DNA from: Yuukianura sp. NJ FZ-2021
Taxonomy: Eukaryota
Direction: 5' to 3'
Length of the DNA stretch: 64,000 nt
NCBI GenBank assembly: GCA_046563655.1
Contig: CM102286.1
Coordinates: 10,478,001-10,542,000 of the forward strand
This document shows positions 6,622-30,320 of this stretch, piece by piece. The number at the start of each line of letters is the position of its first letter. Positions within the stretch are counted from its first letter, which is position 1. The position numbers were made by a program, and so were the translations under genes. The notes under the pieces are model-generated. The model was given only the letters and a program-made list of their open reading frames with translations, searched no databases and had not been told where the DNA came from.

Positions 6622-7888
6622 CACCTCAATTATCTCAGAAACTACTGGACGGATTTGATTCCGGTTTTCTCCTATCAACACCTCATGACCCCAACCTGGT
6701 CACTATTGAATATTATCCCGGTAGGTCAACTCCTTCCGGGTCAAAGGTCAAGGTCAACCGGTTTTATCCACGGTAACCCGCAAAATGACCTCTACAAAAG
6801 TTGTTCATCTCGTCGAGACCAACAACTTTTGTGTACATCACATGACCCCAAGTGACCTAGTTCCGGGTCAAAGGTCAACTTTTTTTTTCATATTAACGTC
6901 CTGCTAGCTGGGAAGCGGAAGGAACCCACCCCACAGCGCCGGGTGATCCACCGTCACCCCGGGTGACCCACTGTCACCCCCGGGTGACCCACCGTCACAC
7001 ACCCCGGGTGACCCACTCTCACACCACTGGGTGGGCCCACGCCCCTCCCCCGGGGATCCCACTCCCTCTCCCCCGGGGAACACACCCCAACGCCTCCTGG
7101 GGTGCGGAGCTAAAAAGTAAGGGGAACCCATCCCTACGCCCCCTGGGGTGCGGAGCAAATAAGCGGGGGGAACACACGCCAACGTCCCCATGGGGTGCGG
7201 AGCAAAAAAGTGGGGGGAAGCCACCCCCACGCCCCGGGGGTAACCCCACATTCCCCACCTGGGGGGAAACCGTCTTTTGGCTTGAGCTATTTCGTTATGC
7301 GCGGTTTACAACCGGTTTATTCCACTTAAACCTGACCTCCATCAACAACACTAATGTTCCTTCCCGTATTGTCATATTGTGTGAACCTTTTTATTTTTGT
7401 TAGAATTTGCGGAATCTAATTTGGTTTTCCTTAAATTGATATTTTGAAATTGAATTTTTCTTAAGGGAAACTTGATTTAAGTTTGGAGTTATTAGTGCAT
7501 TAATACTGATACCTCAGAGTTCTGTTGATGACAGACTTCAATGAATCGTAAGCAATTGCATTAGTAGCAAATACACAACTCGGTTCGAAATCCCGAAAGA
7601 AAAAAAAAATTAAAAAGTAATCTTGGAGTTTTTTAAAAATAATTTCAAATCAAATTAAAAAGCCGGAAATAATTTCCAACGAACTCTGACGGGGAAGAAC
7701 GATAGCTAAATGATTATTATTTGGGTTCATTAAAACTTTGGTATTCCCATAAATCCCCATGCCTCAAATGTACCAAAATATTCGTCCAAATTCGAATTCG
7801 AATGCTGCGGAATCCGAATTCCGAATAATTCGTATTCGTCGAAAATTCGGATTTAAATTCGGAGTCAAAATCCGAATTCCAACCCCTC
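6389..7888. mobile_element. Old non-autonomous DNA transposon (hAT-like MITE) hosting a Helentron-like insertion
   Basis: Ends TAGGGGTCGGAATTCG (6389) and CGAATTCCAACCCCT (to 7887) are inverted. Both ends have subterminal clusters of (C)CGAATTC(G) motifs. Flanks ACTGGAAAT and ACTGGAAT resemble a degenerate 8-bp TSD. Confidence 0.6.
6545..7321 (+). mobile_element. DINE-1/Helentron-like non-autonomous element (HINE), family A, intact copy
   Basis: 5' hairpin TTATTAAATAGC-GAAA-GCTATTTAATAA, (GTCT)n microsatellite at 6583-6620, GC-rich internal repeats, 3' sub-terminal AGCTATTT, terminal hairpin CGGTTTACAACCG and a T-rich end. A near-identical second copy lies at 14007-14294 + 20865-21250. Confidence 0.75.
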
Positions 7889-13834: not shown

Positions 13835-14007
13835 AGCGGGAAAGTGGGGGGAACAGCCCCGCTCCCCCGGAGGGGGGGGGGCGGCAAAGTGGGGGGAGCA
13901 CTCCCACTCCCCCTGGGGGCCGGAAAATGGGGGGAACACCCCCACACCCTGGAGGGCAACCCCTTATTCCTGAGCTATTATCAGTATGCGCGGTTTACAA
14001 CCGGTTT
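13835..14007 (+). mobile_element. 3' fragment of a Helentron-like element, family B
   Basis: Matches the 3' end of the element at about 22250-22418 (GGGCAACCCCTTATT.CTGAGCTATTA.CAGTATGCGCGGTTTACAACCGGTTTATT) and abuts a family A 5' end directly. Confidence 0.7.
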
Positions 14008-15171: not shown

Positions 15172-18100
15172 CTATTGAGTTGACTTGCGTTTCATGCGGT
15201 AAATGGCAGGATCATCATTGTTTTGATCTTCTGCTGGCAACAGTACGCAGACTTTGGAGACAGGACGTTTGACAGAACCTTTGTTCGTCTTCAGTTTCAC
15301 GACACGAACAAGTCCGTCTTGACCAGGATATGTCTCCATGACTCTGCCCATTCGCCATTTCAGTTGTGGAGTGTCATCTTCTTTGATTATGACCAAGTCA
15401 CCGACTGCAATGTTGCGGTTCTGACTTCTCCATTTGTTTTTCTCTTGTAAGGAGTTGATGTACTCCTTGTGCCAACGAGTCCAGAAGTGCTGGACCATTT
15501 GAGTGGTTCTTTGCCACCTGGAGAGTCTGTTCTCCTTTTGATTGGTCAAGTCAGCATCTGGAACAGCACAAAGAGAATTATTAATGAGAAAATGACCTGG
15601 TGTTAATGGTTCCAAATCATTAGGATCTGGTGACAATGGACAAATTGGTCTTGAGTTTAGCACTGCCTCCACCTGACAGAGGACAGTGAATAGCTCTTCT
15701 AATGTGAGCGTTGTAGAACCAATTATGCGACGAAGGTGATACTTGGTGCTTTTTACACCAGCTTCCCAATACCCTCCTTGACTTGGCGCTGAGGGTGGGT
15801 TGAAGTGCCATTGGACACCTTTGTCACCTAAAAAGTCGCAGACTGAAGAATTGAATTTTTGGTTTTGAACTAATTCTCTCAGTTCACGCTCTGCTCCGAC
15901 GAAGTTAGAGCCACAGTCACTGTAAATTGCGACTGGCAATCCTCTCCTGGACACAAAACGTTTGAGAGTGGCAATGAATGCCTCTGTCGTCAAGGCTGTG
16001 ACTGCCTCTAGGTGAACTGCCTTGGTGGAAAAACAAACAAAAATGCAAAAATACCCATTAAAGTGTTTTTTACCACGGCCGGTCACTTCCTGTAGAATGA
16101 ATGGGCCAGCAAAGTCCACGCCTGCGTGTGTGAACGGAGGTGATGGAGTTGTTCTGCCCTTTGGTAGTTGACCCATGAGTTGCTCTGTGACCTTGACCTT
16201 GAGTTTTTTGCACGTCATGCAAAGTCGTCGAATTTGGCGGATGATGACTCTGGCCTTCAGGAACCAGTACTCAGTCTGCAAATTGGACCAGAGCAACTGA
16301 TATCCAGCATGATGGAGGTGGTGATGTGTGTTTCTGATGATGAGAATCGCCAGTAGATTTTTTCCATTCAGAATAATTTGATGTTTTTGCGATTCTGGGA
16401 GTGACGAATTGCCAAGTCTCCCTCCAATGCGCAGAATTCCATGCCTGTCTAGAAATGGGGATAGAGCAACCAACTTTGATTCGTTAGAAACTTTACCCTT
16501 GACCTTGAGGTCATCCAAATCCTGTTGAAAATCCTGTTGTTGTGCCAATTTGACCAAAGTTGTAACTGCACATGCCCGTTCCTCCACTGTCAGAGGACCA
16601 TTGACAGTTAAAACTTTTGGATGGCAGTGACCTGTATGAACTTTTAAGTTATTGACAAACCTTTTGACATAGCACATTACATGAATCAGTTTGTTCAAAT
16701 TTGAGTATTTTGACAAAATTGAGTAGTCACTTACGACCTTTGAGGTCAAAACCTTGCGTACCTCTGGAATTTGACCTACGTCTGGTGTTTCAAACGTAGT
16801 AATTCCATGTTCTTGAAGAAACGAAGGTCCGTGCCACCATAAGTCGCAGTTCAGAAGTTCCGTTGAGGTCATCCCTCGAGTGCCACAGTCAGCAGGATTT
16901 TGTAATCCTGGGATGAACTTCCACGACTTGGCTGGAATCTTCTCCTGAATGGCTGAGACTCGGTTGGCAACAAATGTTTTTAATTGGCGTGACTGTAGGC
17001 GGAGCCATTTCAGCACAATTTCGCTGTCAGACCAGGCAGTGACTTGTGCATTGATTTGTGTTGACTCCAAAATTGACATGACGAGTTTTGATACAAGATG
17101 AGCTCCACAAAGTTCCAACTTGGGGAGACTCTGTTGCTTAATTGGAGCGACCTTGGTTTTGGCTGCAATTAGGTTGACTGCGATGGAATTCTGAAAAAAT
17201 ACTCTCAAAAAAACTGCACCACAGTAAGCACTTTCAGATGCATCCGAAAATGCATGAATTTCCATTTTTAAGTTTCCCGCGGGTTTAATGCACCGAGGAA
17301 TTTTGACCTGACAAATGTTTACCATGTGACCTTGGTGCTGTACCCATCGTTCCTGAAGTTCGGCTGGCAACTCGTCGTCCTATTGTAGGCGCTTAGAGTC
17401 AACTGCCTCCAGCCAAAGCTTCTGTAAGAAGATTTTTGCCACGATGGTCAATGGCGCCAAAAATCCCAACGGGTCAAAAACCCTGGAAATTTCTGCCAAA
17501 ACTGTCCGTTTTGTGATTCTGGACATGACCTTGGGCTCATATCCTGAGAAATGGAACATGTCAGTCCTTGAGTCCCAAGACACCCCTAAAGCTTTGGAAT
17601 CATTTTGTGAATTGGAATCAATGTTAGGGTTAACTTCACATAATTTCTCAGGAATTGATTTTAACACAGAAGTTGAGTTGGAATCAATCTTACAGATTTC
17701 CAACTTTGCACAACTTACTAATGCTGTCAATTCCTGACGAAGTTTGATGGTTTCTGCCTCTGTCTCACTTCCCCCCATAAAGTCGTCAACATAGAAGTTG
17801 TTGAGAAGGGCGTGTTTAGCCAGTGGAAATTTGTCCCCGTCATCAATGGCTAGTTGACGGAGGCATCTGACCGCGGAGAACGGAGCTGAGGCTGTACCAT
17901 AGGTGATTGTCTTCAACCTAAATTCCTGAATTGGGTCAAGGTGAGACTTTCGCCACAAAATCGATTGTAAACATTGATCATTTTTATGTACCAAGAATTG
18001 TCGGTACATTTTGGTTACATCACCCTTTAGTGCAATTGGGTACTTACGAAACTGAAGGAGTAAGGAAAAAATGTCTCCTTGTACCGTTGGACCCACTTGA

Positions 18101-20352
18101 AGGCATTGGTTAAGTGAAATGTCACTTGATGTTTTTGCGGAGCCATCAAAAACGACTCGAAGTTTGGTGGTGGTGCTGGACTCCTTGAGAACAAAGTGGT
18201 GCGGAAGGTAGACGACCTTTGACCCGGATGGAAGTTGCATGTCTGTCACTACTTCCATATGACCCAATTTTTGGTACTCATCCATGAACTTGATGTAGTC
18301 AGGATGATGGACCGGGTTGAGTCGTAGCCTCTTTTCCACTTGTTGGAGTCTGCGCAGTGCGATGTCGCGGCTGTCACCTAATTTGGAAATGTTTTCATTA
18401 AGTGGCAACCTTACGACGTACCTTCCCTCCTCATTTCGAGTGTGCGTAGCGACGAAATGGTCCTCGCAAAATTGCTCCTCGATAGTGTAGTTTGATCGCT
18501 TTGGTAGTTCCTCCAGTTCCCAGAATTTCTGTAAAATGTTAACACTGGCATGGTTGACGTGAACTGTAGGTTGACTGCTTGTACCCGTCGGCCCTGATAT
18601 GATCCAACCAAATGTTGTCTACTGTGCAATTGGAGTCTGAGGCGGACCAATGATTTTGCCACTGAGTGTGATTGATGCTGCGAACTCAGCTCCGAGAATT
18701 ATGTCGACATCTCTCGGATTGGTGAAATTGGGATCTGCCAATTGTACCTGCATGAGGTGAGTCCACTTCTGCGAGTTGACTCTGAATGATGGCAAGAAAC
18801 CTGTGACTTTTTGCAAAATTAGTGCATTAACTTGAATTTTAAAATTGGAAATGCGTGAGCACAGGTCAAATGTGACTTGACCGAGTGCCTTCCCAGCATT
18901 GGAACCTGAAATTCCTACAATGTTTACATTAGACTTCTTACGTGCAAGTCCGAGTTTCGTCACACAGCGGTCGGAGATGAAGTTAGATTCTGATCCCTGA
19001 TCCAATAGGATACGACATTCTTGGAATTCGCCTGCTGCATCGATCAGTTTGACAACGGCGGTACTTAACAGTACTTTGGAAGTGGAGCAATGATTTGCTA
19101 ATGTTGGAGTCTCTTCATCAATTTGTTGCGACGTAGAGTGAGCTTCAGCCGTGTCAAAATGAAGTAAAGTGTTATGTGGCTCTTGGCACGTCCGACATCT
19201 GTACTTGGACTGGCACTTTCCTACATTATGCTTGGAACTGAGACAGTTAGTACACAAATTTTTTTTCTTGACAAAACTAAATCTGTCTTTCACTGTTAAC
19301 TGTAACCATTTCTCACATTTGAACAAACCATGTTCACCTTGGCACTGTGGACAAGTGAACTTGTGTTTTTGTTCAGTGGGCTTACTGTCTGTGAAGCTGG
19401 AATGAGCCTTACTTTGGCCAGAAGATCCGGAAGACGAAGATGCTGAATTTGATTTTAGTCCCCGGATGTAGTTTTCCAGAAATTCCTTTGTTTCGGAGAA
19501 TTTCGGAACCTCTGAGCCCTTTAGTTGCTTAGTCCAGTCACGACGGCAGTCTGGATCCATCTTTTCCTTGAGAAGATAAACGATGATTGAATCCCAATGT
19601 TCTGTTGGTTCGTTGAGGGTCTCTAACTGTGTGAGAGATTCCTTGAAACAATCGATCAATTTCCTTAACTGAGTGGAATTTTCTTGTTTCAGTTTTGGAA
19701 AGTTGACCAATTTCTCAATTAGTGTGAAAATGAGTTCTCTTCTGTTATGATAACGTTCTTCCATCAGCTGCCATGCTCCTTGGAAGTTGTCATCAGTGAT
19801 GGGAGTGCCCTTGATGACAGTAGCTGCTTCACCCTTCAGAGAGGAGTGAAGATACCAAAATTTCACACTGTTCGGTAAGGTAGTGTTGTTGATGATGGTA
19901 CTGCGAAATAAATCGCGAAAAGTCAGCCAATCTTCATACTTTCCGTCGAAAGTTGGTAAGGACATCTTCGGAAAGTAAGAATGGACATTGTGGTGATGTG
20001 ACTGTGCAGAAGTTGAAGGAACTGATGGACCTTGTACTGATACTGGAGTTTGTACTGGCTGAATCATGATCAGCTTTTCGTTGATAGTGCCAATCATGGT
20101 GACAAATTCTATGTACGTCTTTGAATGATCTTCAATATCTTCATCGTTTGTCGTGGCGATGATGATCTTGTTGTGTAGTGTGTCGAGGTCATTCCTGACT
20201 CTGATCAGTTCCCGTTCTGCAGTTTTGACTGTTAGATTTGGTGTCTCTTCATTGTATAGTGCGATGACCCTGTTGTGCATAAGGATCTGTTGGCCCAAAC
20301 TTTGACGTAACTTGAGAAGATCAGCCAATGTTGTTTTTGTTCCTGCTGCCAT
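15172..20352 (-). pseudogene. BEL/Pao gag-pol polyprotein interrupted by two in-frame TAG codons (18619-18621, 17380-17382)
   Basis: Gag (LPTFDGKYEDWLTFRDLF, three CCHC knuckles), protease LLDQGS, RT (YLPHH, KLRVVFDGS, FYVDD), Pao RNase H (HAFSDASE, NPADCGTRG) and integrase (GVDFAGP, SDCGSNF, GGYWE). All three ORF pieces share one frame: PIAQ*TTFGW and LQ*DDEL. Confidence 0.92.
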
Positions 20353-20469
20353 GCTGTCAGTCTCAGAAAACAACAATTAACCAAACTGTAATGTTAGTGG
20401 ATGATTTGACCTTAAACGTTTGTCGTCGGTTGATGCTGACTGTAGTCTTCCGTTGACATCCGCTCAAGG

Positions 20470-20864: not shown

Positions 20865-21249
20865 CATGACCCCAAGTGACCTAGTTCCGGGTCAAAAGTC
20901 AACTTTTTTTCATATTAACGTCCTGCTAGCTGGGAAGCGGAAGGAACCCACCCCACAGCGCCGGGTGATCCACCGTCACCCCCGGGTGACCCACCGTCAC
21001 ACACCCCGGGTGACCCACACTCACACCACTGGGTGAGCCCACGCCCCTCCCCCGGGGAACACACCCCAACGCCTCCTGGGGTGCGGAGCTAAAAAGTAAG
21101 GGGAACCCATCCCTACGCCCCCTGGGGTGCGGAGCAAAAAAGTGGGGGGAAGCCATCCCCACGCCCCGGGGTAACCCCACATTCCCCACCTGGGGGGAAA
21201 CCGCCTTTTGGCTTGAGCTATTTCGTTATGCGCGGTTTACAACCGGTTT

Positions 21250-22418
21250 ATTATAATAGCGAAGCTATTATGATAAAAGTGGTTTGTCTGTCCGTCCCTC
21301 TGTCCCTCTGTCCGTCCGTCCGTCCGTCCGGACCATGAACCTCGGAAACTACTGGTCCGATTTGATTCCGGTTTTCACCAGTGACTATGTCATGACCCGG
21401 GCTTGGTCACTATTGAATATGACCCCTGGGCGTCAACTCCTTCCGGGTCAAAGGTCAACCGGTTTTATCCCCGGTAACATGCAAAATGACCTCTACAAAA
21501 GTTGTTCATCTCATCGAGGGGAACAACTTTTGTGTGTAATCTGTGACCCTAGGTCACCTGCTTCCGGGTCAAAATCGATTTCAAAAGTCATTTTTAATGC
21601 AAGTGTGGGTAAAAAAAACTCTGCTTGTGAGACTGGAAAGGCAATTGGCATGGGAGTTGGTTCTCTGCTTAGCAAAAAATCTATTACGCAGTTGACATAT
21701 ACACGTGTCCAGACAGAGTCACCTATTCATTCGTTCTGTTGTTGCTTCATCCGAATCCCACCTCTCTGTCCACATCTTTGTTTGATGTCACTGCGACACC
21801 CCATGTGGGTTAAGGAAGTGGGGGAAACACCCCCTCTCCCCCGTGGAACCCACCCCCTCTCCTCCCGGGGAACCACCCCTCTTCCCTGGGGGAACCACCC
21901 CCTCTCCCCCGGGGAACCACCCGTTCTTCCCCGAGGAACTCACCCCTCTCCCCTGGGGCACACACCCCCTCTCCCCCGGCGCACACACCCCCTCTCCCCG
22001 GCGCACACACCCCCTCTCCCCTGGGGCACACCCCCCCTCTCCCCCGGGGAACACACCCCCGCGCTTCCTGGGGTGCGGAGCAAAAAAACGGGGGAACACC
22101 CCCACTCCCCCCAGAGGGACGGGAAACTGGCGGAACACACCCCCGCGCTTTCTGGGGTGCGGAGCAAAAAAGTGGGGGAAACACCCCCACTCCCCCGAGG
22201 AGGGCGGAAAAGTGGGGGAAGACACCCACTGCCCCTGGGGGGGCGGAAAATTGGGTGGTAACACCCTTACTCCCCCGGGGGGCAGGCGTCAAAGTGGGGG
22301 GAACACACCCCCACTCCCCCGGGGGGGGGGCGGAAAGTGGGGGAACACCCCCACCCCCTGGGGGGCAACCCCTTATTTCTGAGCTATTACCAGTATGCGC
22401 GGTTTACAACCGGTTTAT
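21250..22418 (+). mobile_element. Helentron-like element family B, head-to-tail with family A
   Basis: 5' hairpin TTATAATAGC-GAA-GCTATTATGATAA, (GTCC)n microsatellite, a core homologous to family A (GCAAAATGACCTCTACAAAAGTTGTTCATCTC), C/G-rich tandem units of about 21 bp at 21830-22370, and the same 3' end TATGCGCGGTTTACAACCGGTTT. Confidence 0.75.
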
Positions 22419-23450: not shown

Positions 23451-23783
23451 TGAAAAAAATATAACATTTGTAGCATTTCTGTTTACGATGAAATTCTTAA
23501 CTCAGCCGCTACAAATTTCAGGCAACAATGTAATTACATGCAACGATGATTACACATGGCGGTCGGCTCTGAATTCCATTGGAGTTTTTGGTAATTAACG
23601 AATTAATACAACGAACTAATTAATTAACGAATTAATATAGTTAACGAAATTAGGATCAGAACATAGTTACGTAGACTTCACACACTTTCAGAGCACAGCA
23701 AAGGTCTCAGTTGCGTGTATCGGGTTTAATCCCGTTGCCGATTTTAATTACGCCTTTAACAGGCAACGTTGATTAGATTGCAT

Positions 23784-25800
23784 AGTAGAGTGTTCGAACG
23801 TTGTTTTACCTCATTTATTTTTAGCTCAGCCGCGGGGGCTAGTCGGGCGCAATATTGGGGAGGGGAAAAACCTAAAAATATTCTCAGCCCATAGAAATCC
23901 CCCTCCCCAATAAATTATAAAATACAAAATGTTAACAAGAAAATAGTCGACGAAAAATGTTGACAATGAAAAAGTCAATTACTTAATTTTAATTTCAATA
24001 AGATAATAAATTAAAAACAAAATGTATGAAAAATATAGTTATTATTTAGATTAAGTTAATTGAGATGATTTTGTATAATAAAAAGACCAAACAAAAATAA
24101 TAAGTTTTTTTTTTAAAAATATGAACGTATGATCAGTTAACTTAATACGTTGCGCGCGATATTGGAGGAGAATGAAAAACCACATGGATTCTTATTGCTA
24201 TGATGAACTGAATGTGACTGCGATACATAGTTTTAGACGTGGACAGTCTCCTACTCCTTTTTGAGAGTATTTTGAGATTGGAATTTCCAACACCCGAGGC
24301 TATTTGACAAAACAGAACGAAACTATGCAAAGTTTTCACACACAGTTTTAGACGTGGACCGTCTCCCCCTCTTTTTTGAGAGTATTTTGAGATTGGAATT
24401 TCCAACACCCGAGGCGATTTGACAAAACAGAACGAAACTATGTGTGATAGCCTACTGTCTAAGTGCTTGTAACTACTTTTCTGCGGTCGCTGGTTCGAAT
24501 ACCACACGGATCAACGTTTGTGGTTAAGAAGTTACAAGTACTTAGATACAAGATTGGGGTCAATGTTATTGCTATTTTCAAATTTTTTTTGGTTGAGGAT
24601 TAAAAAAGTTCTAAAACCAATTCTCTAGAAAAACGTTTTTTGAAAAATTCTAAAATAGTAATTCAACCCTTTTCTTGGAAAAGACTCGCTTCTGTTGGAA
24701 AACGTATCCCCCAATATTTTAAAAGATGGCTACAGAGTACAAAGTATTCAAGCTGAAACGCTTGAACACCTCATGGCTACAGCGTTGGATTTATCCAGCC
24801 CAGTCCTGGGGAAGCCTTTGGGCCGTGTGAGCCAGCCCTTGGACGCCAGCCCTTGGACGCCAGCCCTTGGACGCCAGCCCTTGGACGCCAGCCCTTGGAC
24901 GCCAGCCCTTGGACGCCAGCCCTTGGACGCCAGCCCTCAATTCGCATGAATTTTTAACGTAATATAACAACTTCACTGCATAATACAATGGCCTCTCTAC
25001 ATAATACAATGGCGTCTCTGCATAATACAATGGCCTCTCTGCATAATACAATGGTCTCTCTGTATAATACAATGGCCTCTCTGCATATTACCATGGCCCA
25101 GTTGTATAATTCCACAACGTCATTACATAATGCCGAGTTTATTCTGTACAACATAGCGAGTTTGCGAGAGTAAAGTCTAGACTTTGTCAATGTCACGGGA
25201 ACTTACTCCGTGAGTACACCTTGCAGAGTTCTTCCTCGGGATTATTTCCCGCAGGTAACCTTCCTTCGAGAGTCAGATCATCGTTAATACCATGGTCACG
25301 TTGTATAATACCATGACCTCTCTGCATAATACCATGGCCCAGTTGTATAATACCACAACGTCATTACATAATGCCGAGTTTATTCTGTACAACATAGCGA
25401 GTTTGCGAGAGTAAAGTCAGACTTTGTCAATGTCACGGGAACTTACTCCGTGAGTACACCTTGCAGAGTTCTTCCTCGGGATTATTTCCCGCAGGTAACC
25501 TTCCTTCGAGAGTCAGATCATCGTCAATACCATGGTCACGTTGTATAATACCATGGTCACATTGTATAATACCATGGTCACGTTGTATAATGCCATGGTC
25601 ACGTTGTATAATGCCATGGTCACGTTGTATAATACAATAACCTCACTGCATAATACAACATTTTTTGTCAATTTTACATCCAACCACCACCACCACCACC
25701 ACAACCCCAACGTGCCCACCCATGGAAAAGTATAAATAGGGACATTGACTTGCTCATCTCTCAGTTTCATTTCAGACGTTGAGCTGTGAAGACGTGAAGA
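23784..25800 (+). repeat. Left terminal inverted repeat (2017 bp)
   Basis: Reverse complement of 28161-29957 with scattered substitutions. Contains a 115-bp duplication (24229-24440), a 14-bp minisatellite (24831-24937), 21-bp minisatellites, a 240-bp duplication and (CAC)n. Confidence 0.95.
25731..25766 (+). promoter_or_regulatory. Core promoter (TATA + Inr) upstream of the ATPase gene
   Basis: TATAAATA at 25731 and arthropod initiator TCAGTT at 25761 (30-nt spacing); ATG at 25819. Confidence 0.7.
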
Positions 25801-25818
25801 ATCTGTGGACTATATCTC

Positions 25819-26633
25819 ATGGATACCAGTACAGCGTGCGATATTTGCTGCAGACAATTCTCACGAAGGGACGCATTGAAACGACACAAGTTAACTTGTC
25901 ATAGTAGTGTCGCAGTATCGAAAATGCTTCAGGTATGCATGAATCAGCGGGAAAAATCTACTATGTTTCGACATGTACACTCTGGGAAAAAGTTTGACCC
26001 GCATTTGGTTGCACCGTTTACTATGTGCATCAGTGGAATGACTCAGAGCGGCAAAAGCACCCTTGTGAAGCAAATACTTCTACGACGAAACGAAATTATC
26101 GAGACTAATATTGACGAGCCATTGGAACGTATCATGTATTGCTACACTGAGTTCCAGCCTACGCTGTTTGGAGAATTGAAGACCAAGATTCCAACTATAC
26201 AATTTCATCGTGGGCTCCTGAAAAATGGCATGACGGAACCGACAAGCCGTCAGTCGTCGTCCTTGACGATTTGATGCATGAAGCAGGCAAAAACGGAGAA
26301 GTTGGAGCTGCGTTCACAAGGACTTCGCATCACCGCAACGTATCACTCATCATTCTTGTGCAAAACTTTTTTCACAGGAATATGAAAGAAATCACGTCAA
26401 ACTGTCACTACATTGCTCTAATGAAGAATCCGCGAGGCTCTCAATTTGTAGCTTGTCTTGGACGTCAAATGAATGGAGGAAAGAAGAATACAACCATGGA
26501 AGAAGCCTACAAGGAATGCATGTTAAAGCAATATGGATATCTATTCATCGATTTAACTCAACGACAAAATGATTTGTTTCGCATTAGAGATAATATATTT
26601 CCTGAAAATTGTCGAATCTATGCTAATGAATGA
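25819..26633 (+). pseudogene. Polinton/adintovirus-type DNA packaging ATPase (A32/FtsK-like) with an N-terminal C2H2 zinc finger; one frameshift at about 26217
   Basis: C2H2 finger CDICCRQFSRRDALKRHKLTCH and Walker A PFTMCISGMTQSGKST. After restoring one C the protein reads HRGL-PEKWHDGTDKPSVVVLDDLM (Walker B), FTRTSHHRNVSLIILVQNFF, HYIALMKNPR, LGRQM and YGYLFIDL. Confidence 0.85.
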
Positions 26634-26636
26634 ATG

Positions 26637-26682
26637 AATAAACACATTACACGATAAAAGTTCTATTTTCAAGTTTTTTATT
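26637..26682. terminator. Convergent polyadenylation signals
   Basis: AATAAA on the plus strand at 26637-26642 and on the minus strand at 26682-26677, in the 97-bp gap between the two stop codons. Confidence 0.55.
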
Positions 26683-26730
26683 TTGAAAATTCGGAATCTA
26701 ACGAATTTACAGTCATAAAGGTGTATAATT

Positions 26731-28128
26731 CTACGAAATTACGCTAGTGAGAAACTCTCCAAGTATTGGTAATGCGGCAGCGAGAAGAGCTGGCAGGAAC
26801 CCGCCGTGCTGTATAAGTAGTTTTTTCTTGTCTTCAATCGATCCTTTAGCTTCTGCAACACGTTTAATCTTATATCGATGCGGTCTCAAGATATTTTTGA
26901 CGGTGGCTTCAATAGGAATGTTGCCCTGGATTACGTCCTGAACACATTTGTGTAACCCAAGAATTTGACCAGGAGACGCTGTGGAGAGCAGTGTCTCGCG
27001 TATAATAAGGGAGTGTTGGTTCATCTGGTGGAGAAATTGATAATGTCGTATGGGACCTGGTGATGGTTTAGCTCCTCCAGTTTGTCTATACTCTTCTTCC
27101 CCTTCTTCATCCCTTTCGTCTTCCTCGTTTTCCTCCTCTTCTTCTACTTCTTCTTCTACTTCTTCTTCCCATTCTTCATCCCCCTCGTCTTCCTCATCAC
27201 CTTCTTCTTCTTCATTTTCTACATCACTTTCCACGTGCGGGCGATTTCTAGAAAGCTTTTTAGGTTCATCTCGACCGAGCAAGCCTCGGTGGCTGATCGG
27301 AAGCAGATATTTTGGAATGCCTGTCTGAATCATAAAGTCTACGATGACAGGAATCATTTGTCTTGTCAACTTATATCTTCCATCCGCAAGTTTTCGTATT
27401 CCCTCCTCGAACTCGCTCCTGGGTATGTTGGCATCACCCAGACTAACGCTATTGTTCGCAAAGGTTGCACCATTTGCTACAAAAAATTGTGCTAGCTGTT
27501 TTCCAACAGCTGAAAACTGGTCCATAGTAAACGGTGGAGTTGTCGGTGCTGCTGTCGGCGTTTCATCTTTCGCTATTTGCGATTCTTTTTTAAATCTCTT
27601 GGAAAATGGCATCTCGAGCGCGTCATTCGGCTTTACCACAGTATTTGACCAACCATTCGTTGGATTTTCTGACCAGGTGGTAATTCGGTCATATCTGTCT
27701 TCGGTTTTTCTGGCTGACTTTTCCGGTACACCATCCCATCCGGTAAAGTTACTTGTAGCCATATCATTCCACCGCCTATCGTTTACAACGTTCACATTGA
27801 CGTAGCCTTCCCTTTGCTTCCGTTGATTTTCCCAGTTCTGGCGTAATTCCGTTTGCATCATATGATTCTGAAGTTCGATTGGAATGTTGTTCCCAGAATC
27901 TCGCGAATTACGCTCATGAAGCTCCATTGGTCCACGGCTCTGAGACATGTTCATTGTATGTTGTGGTAAGTATTGTACGGGTTTAGTATCAAGCAAAAAA
28001 CCATCATGGATTTGCTTTTCTCCAAAATAACTTTTGCAAGGGCTGTTTTGCTGAGACTCATATGTCTCAAGCTGATCCAGTAGACTGTTGTAGTCGTCTT
28101 GGTGAACAAGAATGTATTTTTGCGACAT
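26731..28128 (-). CDS. 465-aa Maverick-type hypothetical (putative virion core / membrane-lytic precursor) protein
   Basis: Intact ORF from the ATG at 28128 (the TTG start at 28182 lies inside the TIR). N-terminus MSQKYILV, a long poly-Glu tract, and the C-terminal domain ..VIQGNIPIE..KKKLLIQHGGFLPALLAAALPILGEFL*, which resembles small conserved ORFs found next to the ATPase in animal Mavericks. Confidence 0.7.
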   Translation of the reverse strand: MSQKYILVHQDDYNSLLDQLETYESQQNSPCKSYFGEKQIHDGFLLDTKPVQYLPQHTMNMSQSRGPMELHERNSRDSGNNIPIELQNHMMQTELRQNWENQRKQREGYVNVNVVNDRRWNDMATSNFTGWDGVPEKSARKTEDRYDRITTWSENPTNGWSNTVVKPNDALEMPFSKRFKKESQIAKDETPTAAPTTPPFTMDQFSAVGKQLAQFFVANGATFANNSVSLGDANIPRSEFEEGIRKLADGRYKLTRQMIPVIVDFMIQTGIPKYLLPISHRGLLGRDEPKKLSRNRPHVESDVENEEEEGDEEDEGDEEWEEEVEEEVEEEEENEEDERDEEGEEEYRQTGGAKPSPGPIRHYQFLHQMNQHSLIIRETLLSTASPGQILGLHKCVQDVIQGNIPIEATVKNILRPHRYKIKRVAEAKGSIEDKKKLLIQHGGFLPALLAAALPILGEFLTSVIS

Positions 28129-28160
28129 GACTGTTAGCCTAACCGCTCCAGATGGTAAAA

Positions 28161-29957
28161 TCTTCACGTCTTCACAGCTCAACGTCTGAAATGAAACTGA
28201 TAGATGAGCAAGTCAACGTCGCTATTTATACTTTTGTATGGGTGGGCACGTTGGGGTTGTGGTGGTGGTGGTGGTTGGATGTAAAATTGACAAAAAATGT
28301 TGTATTATGCAGTGAGGTTATTGTATTATACAACGTGACCATGGCATTATACAACGGGACCATGGTATTATACAACGTGACCATGGTATTATACAATGTG
28401 ACCATGGTATTATACAACGTGACCATGGTATTGACGATGATCTGACTCTCGAAGGAAGGTTACCTGCGGGAAATAATCCCGAGGAAGAACTCTGCAAGGT
28501 GTACTCACGGAGTAAGTTCCCGTGACATTGACAAAGTCTAGACTTTACTCTCGCAAACTCGCTATGTTGTACAGAATAAACTCGGCATTATGTATTGACG
28601 TTGTGGTATTATACAACTGGGCCATGGTAATATGCAGAAAGGCCATTGTATTATGCAGAGAGGCCATTGTATTATACAGAGAGGGCATTGTATTATACAG
28701 AGAGGCGATTGTATTATACAGAGAGGCCATTGTATTATGCAGAGAGGCCATTGTATTATGCAGAGAGGCCATTGTATTATGCAGAGACGCCATTGTATTA
28801 TGTAGAGAGGCCATTGTATTATGCAGTGAAGTTGTTATATTACGTTAAAAATTCATGCGAATTGAGGGCTGGCGTCCAAGGGCTGGCGTCCAAGGGCTGG
28901 CGTCCGAGGGCTGGCTCACACGGCCCAAAGGCTTCCTCAGGACTGGGCTGGATAAATCCAACGCTGTAGCCATGAGGTGTTCAAGCGTTTCAGCTTGAAT
29001 ACTTTGTACTCTGTAGCCATCTTTTAAAATATTGGGGGATACGTTTTCCAACAGAAGCGAGTCTTTTCCAAGAAAAGGGTTGAATTACTATTTTAGAATT
29101 TTTCAAAAAACGTTTTTCTAGAGAATTGGTTTTTAGAACTTTTTTAATCCAAAAAATTTGAAAATAGCAATAACATTGACCCTAGTCTTGTGTCTAAGTA
29201 CTTGTAACTTCTTAACCACAAAGGTTGACCCGTGTGGTATTCGAACCAGCGACCGCAGAAAAGTAGTTACAAGCACTTAGACAGTAGGCTATCACACATA
29301 GTTTCGTTCTGTTTTGTCAAATCGCCTCGGGTGTTGGAAATTCCAATCTCAAAATACTCTCAAAAAAGAGGGGGAGACGGTCCACGTCTAAAACTGTGTG
29401 TGTGAAAACTTTGCATAGTTTCGTTCTGTTTTGTCAAATTGCCTCGGGTGTTGGAAATTCCAATCTCAAAATACTCTCAAAAAGGAGTGGGAGACTGTCC
29501 ACGTCTAAAACTATGTATCGCAGTTACATTCAGTTCATCATAGCAATAAGAATCCATGTGGTTTTTCATCCTCCTCCAATATCGCGCGCAACGTAGTAAG
29601 TTAACTGATCATACGTTCATATTTTTAAAGAAAAACTTATTATTTTTGTTTGGTCTTTTTCTTATACAAAATCATCTCAATTAACTTAATCTAAATAATA
29701 ACTATATTTTTCATACATTTTGTTTTTAATTTATTATCTTATTGAAATTAAAATTAAGTAATTGACTTTTTCATTGTCAACATTTTTCGTCGACTATTTT
29801 CTTGTTAACATTTTGTATTTTATAATTTATTGGGGAGGGGGATTTCTATGGGCTGAGAATATTTTGAGGTTTTTTCCCCTCCCCAATATTCCGGCCGACT
29901 ATCCCCCGCGGCTGAGCTAAAAATAAATGAGGTAAAACAACGTTCGAACACTCTACT
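28161..29957 (-). repeat. Right terminal inverted repeat (1797 bp)
   Basis: Reverse complement of the left TIR. It lacks the 240-bp duplication and has different minisatellite copy numbers. Confidence 0.95.
28195..28230 (-). promoter_or_regulatory. Mirror-image core promoter (TATA + Inr) upstream of the minus-strand gene
   Basis: Minus-strand TATAAATA (28230-28223) and TCAGTT (28200-28195); first ATG at 28128. Confidence 0.7.
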
Positions 29958-30320
29958 TGCATATGGCGGTCAGCTCTAAATTCCATTGAAATTTTTGTGT
30001 CTACAACGTAATCGTTACCTCAGCCACTTCAAATTTCCAATTGGCGTCCAATTAACGAAATTAGGATTAGAACATAGTTACGTTGTTACACATCACATTC
30101 TTTCAGAGCCATAGCAAAGGTCTCACTTTCGTGTATCTGGTTAAAAGTTGCACTCAAAAAAAATGTGTCAATACGTTGTTTACATCGCGCTACCTTTTAG
30201 TTGTTATCTAAAACGTTCAGAACACATTCTTACGCAGAATTGGCACGTTGTTTAATTCGATGTCCATGTAAAAGCTGATAGGAAAACCACTCTCATGAAA
30301 ATTTCACGTTTCGAAGTTCA

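Follow-up and report, generated by a model that had tools for sequence, protein, structure and literature searches.

The stretch analysed here, hereafter the window, comprises 64,000 nucleotides of contig CM102286.1 of Yuukianura sp. NJ FZ-2021 (GenBank assembly GCA_046563655.1, positions 10,478,001 to 10,542,000) and contains, at 23784–29957, an element of ca. 6 kb which starts with AGTAGAG, finishes with CTCTACT, and is flanked on both sides by TGCAT, a 5-bp target site duplication (Table 1). It consists of two inverted-repeat arms of ca. 2 kb each, whose length the original prediction for this locus had not given, and of two convergent genes situated between them, the plus-strand one coding for a putative packaging ATPase and the minus-strand one for a fusion protein. 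That prediction had seen here the layout of an ambisense densovirus, with one promoter duplicated in the terminal inverted repeats (TIRs) and facing both genes. Judged by its sequence, the element is a non-autonomous Polinton/Maverick and not a densovirus, because its genes are those of Polintons, and no match to a core replication or capsid gene, nor to the parvoviral NS1, is found in it.

The plus-strand gene spans 815 nt in the window copy and is divided between two frames of 151 and 119 amino acids (aa); its coordinates had been predicted correctly, but the break had been overlooked, 25819–26633 not being a single frame. In an unbroken family copy the encoded protein is recognised by Pfam as Pox_A32 (25.8 bits, cut-off 22.8). 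The minus-strand gene codes for a 465-aa protein, whose first ca. 290 residues are probably what we take to be PZ. Its modelled GasderminX-like domain (pLDDT 94.6) resembles, in Foldseek, GasderminX of the Terrapene adintovirus (TM 0.87, E 4.4e-6) and has no match among solved structures. The N-terminal part was modelled with a pLDDT of 64 and had no Foldseek match under E 0.001, its best VIA Z being 4.5, while atlas, PDB profile, and homologue searches with it gave nothing informative. The two halves of the fusion correspond, in the full-length elements of this genome, to separate adjoining genes standing in the opposite order; no relative of the 465-aa protein was found among viral contigs. 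The PZ-like part (27229–28128, minus strand) gives weak structural rows to three adenovirus capsid structures (Z 3.4–3.9), which lie within noise. Rfam had no match in the element and PHROGs none for six proteins, and the small open reading frames (ORFs) within the 21-bp arrays of the arms are taken for by-products of the repeats.

Full-length elements of this genome carry an rve integrase (Pfam) and a DJR-like capsid protein. When proteins of these relatives were used as tblastn queries, no polymerase, integrase, capsid, or protease match was found inside the element; the polymerase queries are genes which we take to be such by their motifs, and the minor capsid and protease labels rest on gene order. 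The inner arm matches 22 places in the genome, corresponding to 11 elements, ten of them 5.0–7.1 kb in size and one of ca. 13 kb with a large insertion, with arms of 1.3–2.4 kb. Ten elements contain the same two genes, 0.6–2.7% apart. Target site duplications are of 5 bp in 8 of the 11 copies, as in the longer relatives, and of 6 bp in one, and the gene-less copy and the broken copies also carry clean ones. The family displays features of a non-autonomous Polinton derivative, i.e., ends and target duplications as in the longer elements and several dispersed copies, together with features of autonomous Polintons: AGTAG..CTACT ends, a target duplication in 9 of the 11 copies, and an A32/FtsK-type packaging ATPase. 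One family copy (L027, G000:C1:4620055-4626591) is nested in a full-length Polinton, at its capsid gene, without a target duplication; another has inserted next to a host-gene exon (L024:1775-2215), the gene being one which, from its translation, we presume to resemble lin-7; and a solitary left arm (L249:480-1620, G000:C3:1938879) stops before the promoter and has no gene matches.

Within a copy, the two arms differ by 0.7%, versus 2.2–2.7% between same-side arms of different copies (two non-repetitive blocks, 259 columns, in the 8 of 11 copies having both). Nineteen minor variants occur on both arms of a copy and 16 on one, with no fixed left/right difference, and in one copy ca. 11 nt of the right-hand leader have been added to the left arm. 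As read from these differences, the promoter is doubled through arm homogenisation, which accounts for its mirrored position. Each promoter copy is composed of a TATA box motif, TATAAATA, and an initiator (Inr), TCAGTT. Both motif pairs, the ATGs (25819 on the plus and 28128 on the minus strand), the last nucleotides of the stops (26633 and 26731), and the AATAAA of each strand all lie where the original prediction had placed them; the distance of the motifs from the inner TIR edge, 35–70 bp, is also correct, and the inverted repeat extends to 69 nt beyond the TATA start. A strict TATA + Inr pattern has three matches in the window, two of them at the element, while shuffled sequences give 0.047 matches per element and ca. 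6e-4 per given 150-nt zone; its placement ahead of the ATG is beyond chance, the left and right sites counting as a single observation, since they are the same sequence in two places. By itself the AATAAA pair is weak (P=0.055 in shuffles of the gap, which is 76% AT) and is present in all ten gene-bearing copies. The expected conservation was found, with TATAAATA in 22 of 22 arms and TCAGTT at +30 in 20 of 22, but it says little in copies so close to each other.

Both genes are preceded by the same upstream module of ca. 0.9 kb and share the first ca. 40 nt of the leader, which makes their joint regulation by the mirrored promoter plausible. In longer relatives a TATA-like and an Inr-like motif ca. 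30–33 nt apart stand before 10 of 16 gene types (0.4 in shuffles), and this type of promoter is, by its motifs, ordinary for these Polintons. Among 80 metagenomic ATPase loci, on contigs mostly of 1–5 kb, no promoter mirrored in TIRs was found. The 21-bp arrays of the inner module are a candidate enhancer or packaging signal; their core motif occurs 9–18 times per strand per family locus, versus 0–1 in 12 loci of longer relatives, and the full-length elements examined have no such arrays.

Outside the inner module, the arm sequence varies from copy to copy and corresponds to the ends of longer elements. The outer arm of the window copy has 640 nt at 97–98% identity to a longer element, and the end matches of other copies comprise 1.1–1.3 kb (94–98%), 1.5 kb (97%), 1.4 kb (94%), and 0.4–0.5 kb (92%), all being the best among 16 loci. 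Three donors are full-length elements, the TIRs of which are only 81–100 bp long. The donor sequence is situated at one end in full-length elements and at both ends in the mini copies; of the nine copies in which both arms were tested, eight have identical donors on the two. The match sometimes comprises a complete accessory gene together with the promoter motif of that gene. These matches point to capture of the ends of longer Polintons, which would then have been copied to the other end. A tandem array of ca. 270-bp period (G000:C4:10331951-10340031), 31 units of which hold the terminal motif of this Polinton family, is possibly satellite DNA arising from an element end.

We consider it probable that the element is a non-autonomous Polinton/Maverick mobilised by longer Polintons, with swaps of ends and copying from arm to arm. 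Longer Polintons with the same ends would supply the proteins that copy and integrate the mini-Polinton, and the latter, replicating beside them, would swap in their end sequences via recombination or template switching. The content of one arm would be copied to the other by panhandle-type repair in the course of protein-primed strand-displacement replication, a type of repair known for the inverted terminal repeats (ITRs) of adenoviruses. The same copying would have placed one Pol II core promoter (TATA + Inr) and the 21-bp arrays before both genes, and, since the same promoter and arrays stand before each, the two are probably transcribed together in an active element. The end pieces of longer Polintons on both arms of the copies suggest that the family parasitises them.

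Several findings weigh against this reading. The target duplication is absent in 2 of the 11 copies, two copies match a longer element at 82–90% only, and two donors are palindromic and hence provide no test of one-end capture. Gene conversion after insertion, or a collapse of the arms during assembly, could also equalise the arms. The inner module had no match in the longer elements retrieved, and either gene may have owned the promoter first. The 10-of-16 promoter pattern was fitted after sight of the sequences, the strict pattern being found in 2 of 16, and the invariance of TATA and Inr (0 of 14 motif columns vary versus 19 of 97 columns overall; P=0.037, 8 copies) is weak evidence. Finally, the 271-aa ATPase frame is open in five of the ten gene-bearing copies and broken in that of the window, the second gene is open in seven, and both are open in three.

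A reading that is compatible with mobilisation by longer Polintons but claims more is that of a true satellite, an old capsid-less lineage that would use its own zinc-finger ATPase, with a partner protein, to direct the capsids of helpers to genomes bearing the 21-bp arrays as a mark, and would take over helper ends so that its origin and integrase site continue to match. We regard it as possible but doubtful, and we are still more reserved about an old Polinton-satellite lineage defined by a packaging ATPase with its partner, 21-bp phased arrays as a mark of its DNA, one mirrored promoter, and repeated capture of the ends of any helper, copied to both termini. Among 93 ATPase matches, the closest outside the family (81–84%) belong to capsid-less elements, and the full-length group follows at 76–77%. 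These closest relatives are mostly fold-back elements with a 21/42-bp array at their centre; they have a PZ-like protein either fused to the ATPase or following it, and their cores have no polymerase, integrase, or capsid match; one locus has polymerase and capsid matches further out, probably of a neighbour, and another a 28% integrase match, taken as an inserted retroelement. The tree was built from 22 ATPases, one of 23 loci tried having been dropped; it places the family as sister to capsid-less elements with ATPase fusions (96/93) and sets it off from the full-length group (100/100). Synonymous sites are near or at saturation versus all six relatives tested. The grouping hints at an old satellite lineage, as a distinct clade in ATPase sequence whose dependence on a helper would follow from its lack of genes.

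The sister family (L075, L076, L243/L244, L245/L246, and L074, e.g., G000:C4:8283652-8291569) has retained both functions as a fusion, upstream of which lies a 21/42-bp array of its own: two divergent ATPase–PZ-like fusion genes surround the central array, the inverse of the layout of the studied element. Similar fusions were found in 2 of the 80 metagenomic loci, and in one of them a partner gene with another promoter motif converges on the fusion. The pN/pS values within the family are 0.36 and 0.45, and 35 of 98 changes are synonymous versus 26% expected (P=0.02). Adenovirus packaging repeats, as far as described in a part of PMC5033970, are likewise spaced 21 bp. Against a satellite stand the fading of the selection signal at a higher transition bias (P=0.06–0.11), the estimates being based on unbroken copies only (5 and 7), and the clean target duplications of the gene-less and broken copies, which mean that the genes are not needed in cis. 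In addition, the base of the ATPase tree is unresolved, and arrays in such a position, ahead of a promoter, may simply act as enhancers.

It is unlikely that the element is a decaying deletion derivative, copied passively, with a promoter and genes that are now irrelevant. Frameshifts in 7 of the 10 gene-bearing copies, the insertion of a copy devoid of genes, and the modest significance of the TATA/Inr invariance speak for decay. No close autonomous parent is found among the 93 ATPase matches, and the pN/pS values also argue against it. Moreover, four of the five one-base indel columns lie within runs of at least four equal bases, so some of the frame breaks may be slippage or assembly error, although that of the window copy lies in a run of two.

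The original prediction went further and proposed that the TIR pair could act as a universal expression cassette; this appears improbable, as does a multipartite Polinton with common arms of which the element would be a single segment. The same promoter module does stand on both arms, and one copy has a different centre. All 22 inner-arm matches belong to 11 elements, ten of which hold the same two genes, and in the eleventh the family arms continue until just past the TATA box and are followed by a gene-less centre without the Inr, 82–85% identical to the non-coding central repeat array of the sister family. Since the single natural swap of the centre thus contains neither a gene nor an Inr, a universal cassette is disfavoured; the inner arm is a short candidate promoter, not a demonstrated cassette. 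As to segments, the genome does contain capsid-carrying mini-elements of similar size, and long inverted repeats were found in 14 of 20 loci examined out of 98 capsid matches, but these differ in their ends, have their genes in tandem, and share no DNA match longer than 39 nt with the element; a multipartite virus with common arms is therefore unlikely. The loci L146-L158 and L161 are small Polinton-like elements of ca. 5–8 kb with 1.0–2.5-kb arms and a divergent capsid gene with one or two others, and one of this set lies within the ATPase region of another Polinton. A 12.7-kb near-perfect palindrome (L067/L068, G000:C9:1272369-1285096) has a 5-bp duplication, AGTAG ends like those of the element, and polymerase-like genes on both arms, with no other core gene match. 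Polymerase-like ORFs in L063:6614-6892, L066, and L067 break near the YTDT motif, which by eye suggests an intron.

An endogenous ambisense densovirus, or a replicon derived from one with promoters in the ITRs, has practically no chance of being the right explanation, its identity being refuted by gene content. The likeness is real as an analogy and nothing more: the element, like JcDV, is ca. 6 kb in size, its genes converge, and its near-identical inverted repeats have a TATA box motif at their inner edge; in JcDV the two TATA boxes occupy this position in ITRs of 547 nt (PMC3738899). The convergent layout is not a densovirus feature here, because Mavericks, in the portion of PMC8097293 dealing with gene order, usually have opposite-strand gene modules pointing inward. 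In contrast to ambisense densoviruses, the element has no NS1 or parvoviral capsid gene match (Pfam found no NS1 in either gene, and the sole Parvo_NS1 match of the genome is ca. 90 kb away), both its genes have Polinton homologues (Pox_A32 and the GasderminX fold), and its AGT..ACT ends are flanked by integrase-type target duplications. The terminal 150 nt fold only weakly (−16.6 and −18.0 kcal/mol, calculated without a shuffle control), into neither terminal palindromes nor Y-shaped hairpins. A parvoviral NS1-like fragment ca. 90 kb from the element (L253:4385-4774, G000:C4:10598384-10598773) is in frame with a reverse-transcriptase-like ORF, and no terminal repeats were found at it.

With the animal Polintons/Mavericks, including adintoviruses with GasderminX (Starrett et al., PMC8502044; Barreat & Katzourakis, PMC8097293; both as far as their relevant parts go), the mini-Polinton shares the AGT..ACT ends, the target duplication, reported as 5–8 bp in the part of bioRxiv 2023.08.22.554363 which also gives size and TIR ranges, the A32/FtsK-type ATPase, a GasderminX-like gene, and inward-pointing genes on opposite strands. 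It differs from them in its family size of 5.0–7.1 kb instead of 13–25 kb, in giving no polymerase, integrase, capsid, or protease match, in the fusion of two genes in reversed order, and in its 1.3–2.4-kb arms, which hold a promoter and captured ends. The polintons outlined for butterflies in bioRxiv 10.1101/2025.02.07.637071 include ones without polB, likewise mobile without their own polymerase, and ones with 2-kb TIRs in which genes are duplicated; according to that outline they retain most core genes, whereas the element retains two and its ends change between copies. In Polinton-like viruses the end modules turn over and the core stays constant, with TIRs alike in the parasite and its putative helper, but the helper is an entomopoxvirus and the replication genes turn over, at least in the part of PMC11296320 concerned with them; the end pieces of the element come from other Polintons and are present on both arms. 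Further prior work is found, in the parts that bear on the subject, in PMC6521256, PMC11161782, and PMC9863843. No such family was described in the literature on non-autonomous, segmented, or satellite Polintons and on Polinton promoters, as covered by titles and abstract openings, outside Repbase, supplements, and most subscription papers. Phage satellites (PICIs) are also small and capsid-less and possess their own packaging protein; redirection of packaging is proven for them and only hypothesised for the mini-Polinton.

Animal Polintons may replicate as free linear DNA and form particles. A capsid-less family with a packaging motor, exchanged ends, and equalised arms would provide indirect, testable signs of extrachromosomal co-replication and of Polinton parasites. 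The mirrored promoter is in itself of modest weight, having arisen as a side effect of arm homogenisation that converges on the densovirus layout. A satellite lineage, if true, would be the analogue of phage packaging pirates as a virus of a transposon, and the numerous exchanges of ends within a single genome would amount to a fossil record of the strand-displacement replication of free linear Polinton DNA in an animal germline.

Table 1. Features of the mini-Polinton, in positions of the window
Feature	Position	Strand	Remarks
Target site duplication, left (TGCAT)	23779–23783	.	repeated at 29958–29962
Left TIR	23784–25800	+	starts AGTAGAG; Polinton-type end
Outer arm segment	23804–24442	+	98% identity to one end of full-length Polinton L071 (own TIR ca. 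96 bp)
Second outer segment	24448–24705	+	91% identity to the opposite subterminal end of that full-length Polinton (L080)
14-bp tandem repeat	24831–24937	+	near start of family-specific inner module
21-bp-period arrays	24976–25635	+	24976–25098, 25285–25355, 25526–25635; with 240-bp duplication
TATA box motif TATAAATA, left arm	25731–25738	+	
Initiator TCAGTT, left arm	25761–25766	+	predicted start A at 25763
C2H2 zinc finger + A32-type packaging ATPase	25819–26633	+	frameshifted near 26.2 kb (151-aa + 119-aa pieces)
AATAAA of plus-strand gene	26637–26642	+	
AATAAA of minus-strand gene	26682–26677	-	
465-aa fusion protein	26731–28128	-	conserved Polinton protein (aa 1–ca. 290) + acidic linker + GasderminX-like domain
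GasderminX-like domain	26731–27063	-	GGFLP motif; last ca. 105 residues; model + Foldseek
Right TIR	28161–29957	-	ends CTCTACT; 21-bp arrays 28323–28432 and 28606–28826
Initiator TCAGTT, right arm	28200–28195	-	predicted start A at 28198
TATA box motif TATAAATA, right arm	28230–28223	-	
Target site duplication, right (TGCAT)	29958–29962	.	

Elsewhere in the window, the minus strand at 15172–20376 contains ORFs of a BEL/Pao retrotransposon (DUF1759, Peptidase_A17, DUF5641). Related GC-rich short-period repeats are present at 6939–7235, 13877–13949, and 20946–22365 and probably represent another repeated element. The region 30895–61719 is satellite DNA, composed of 197-bp, 353-bp, and 150/300-bp arrays with interspersed 233-bp dimers, and the flanks of the mini-Polinton are, by eye, similar to the 233-bp satellite unit.

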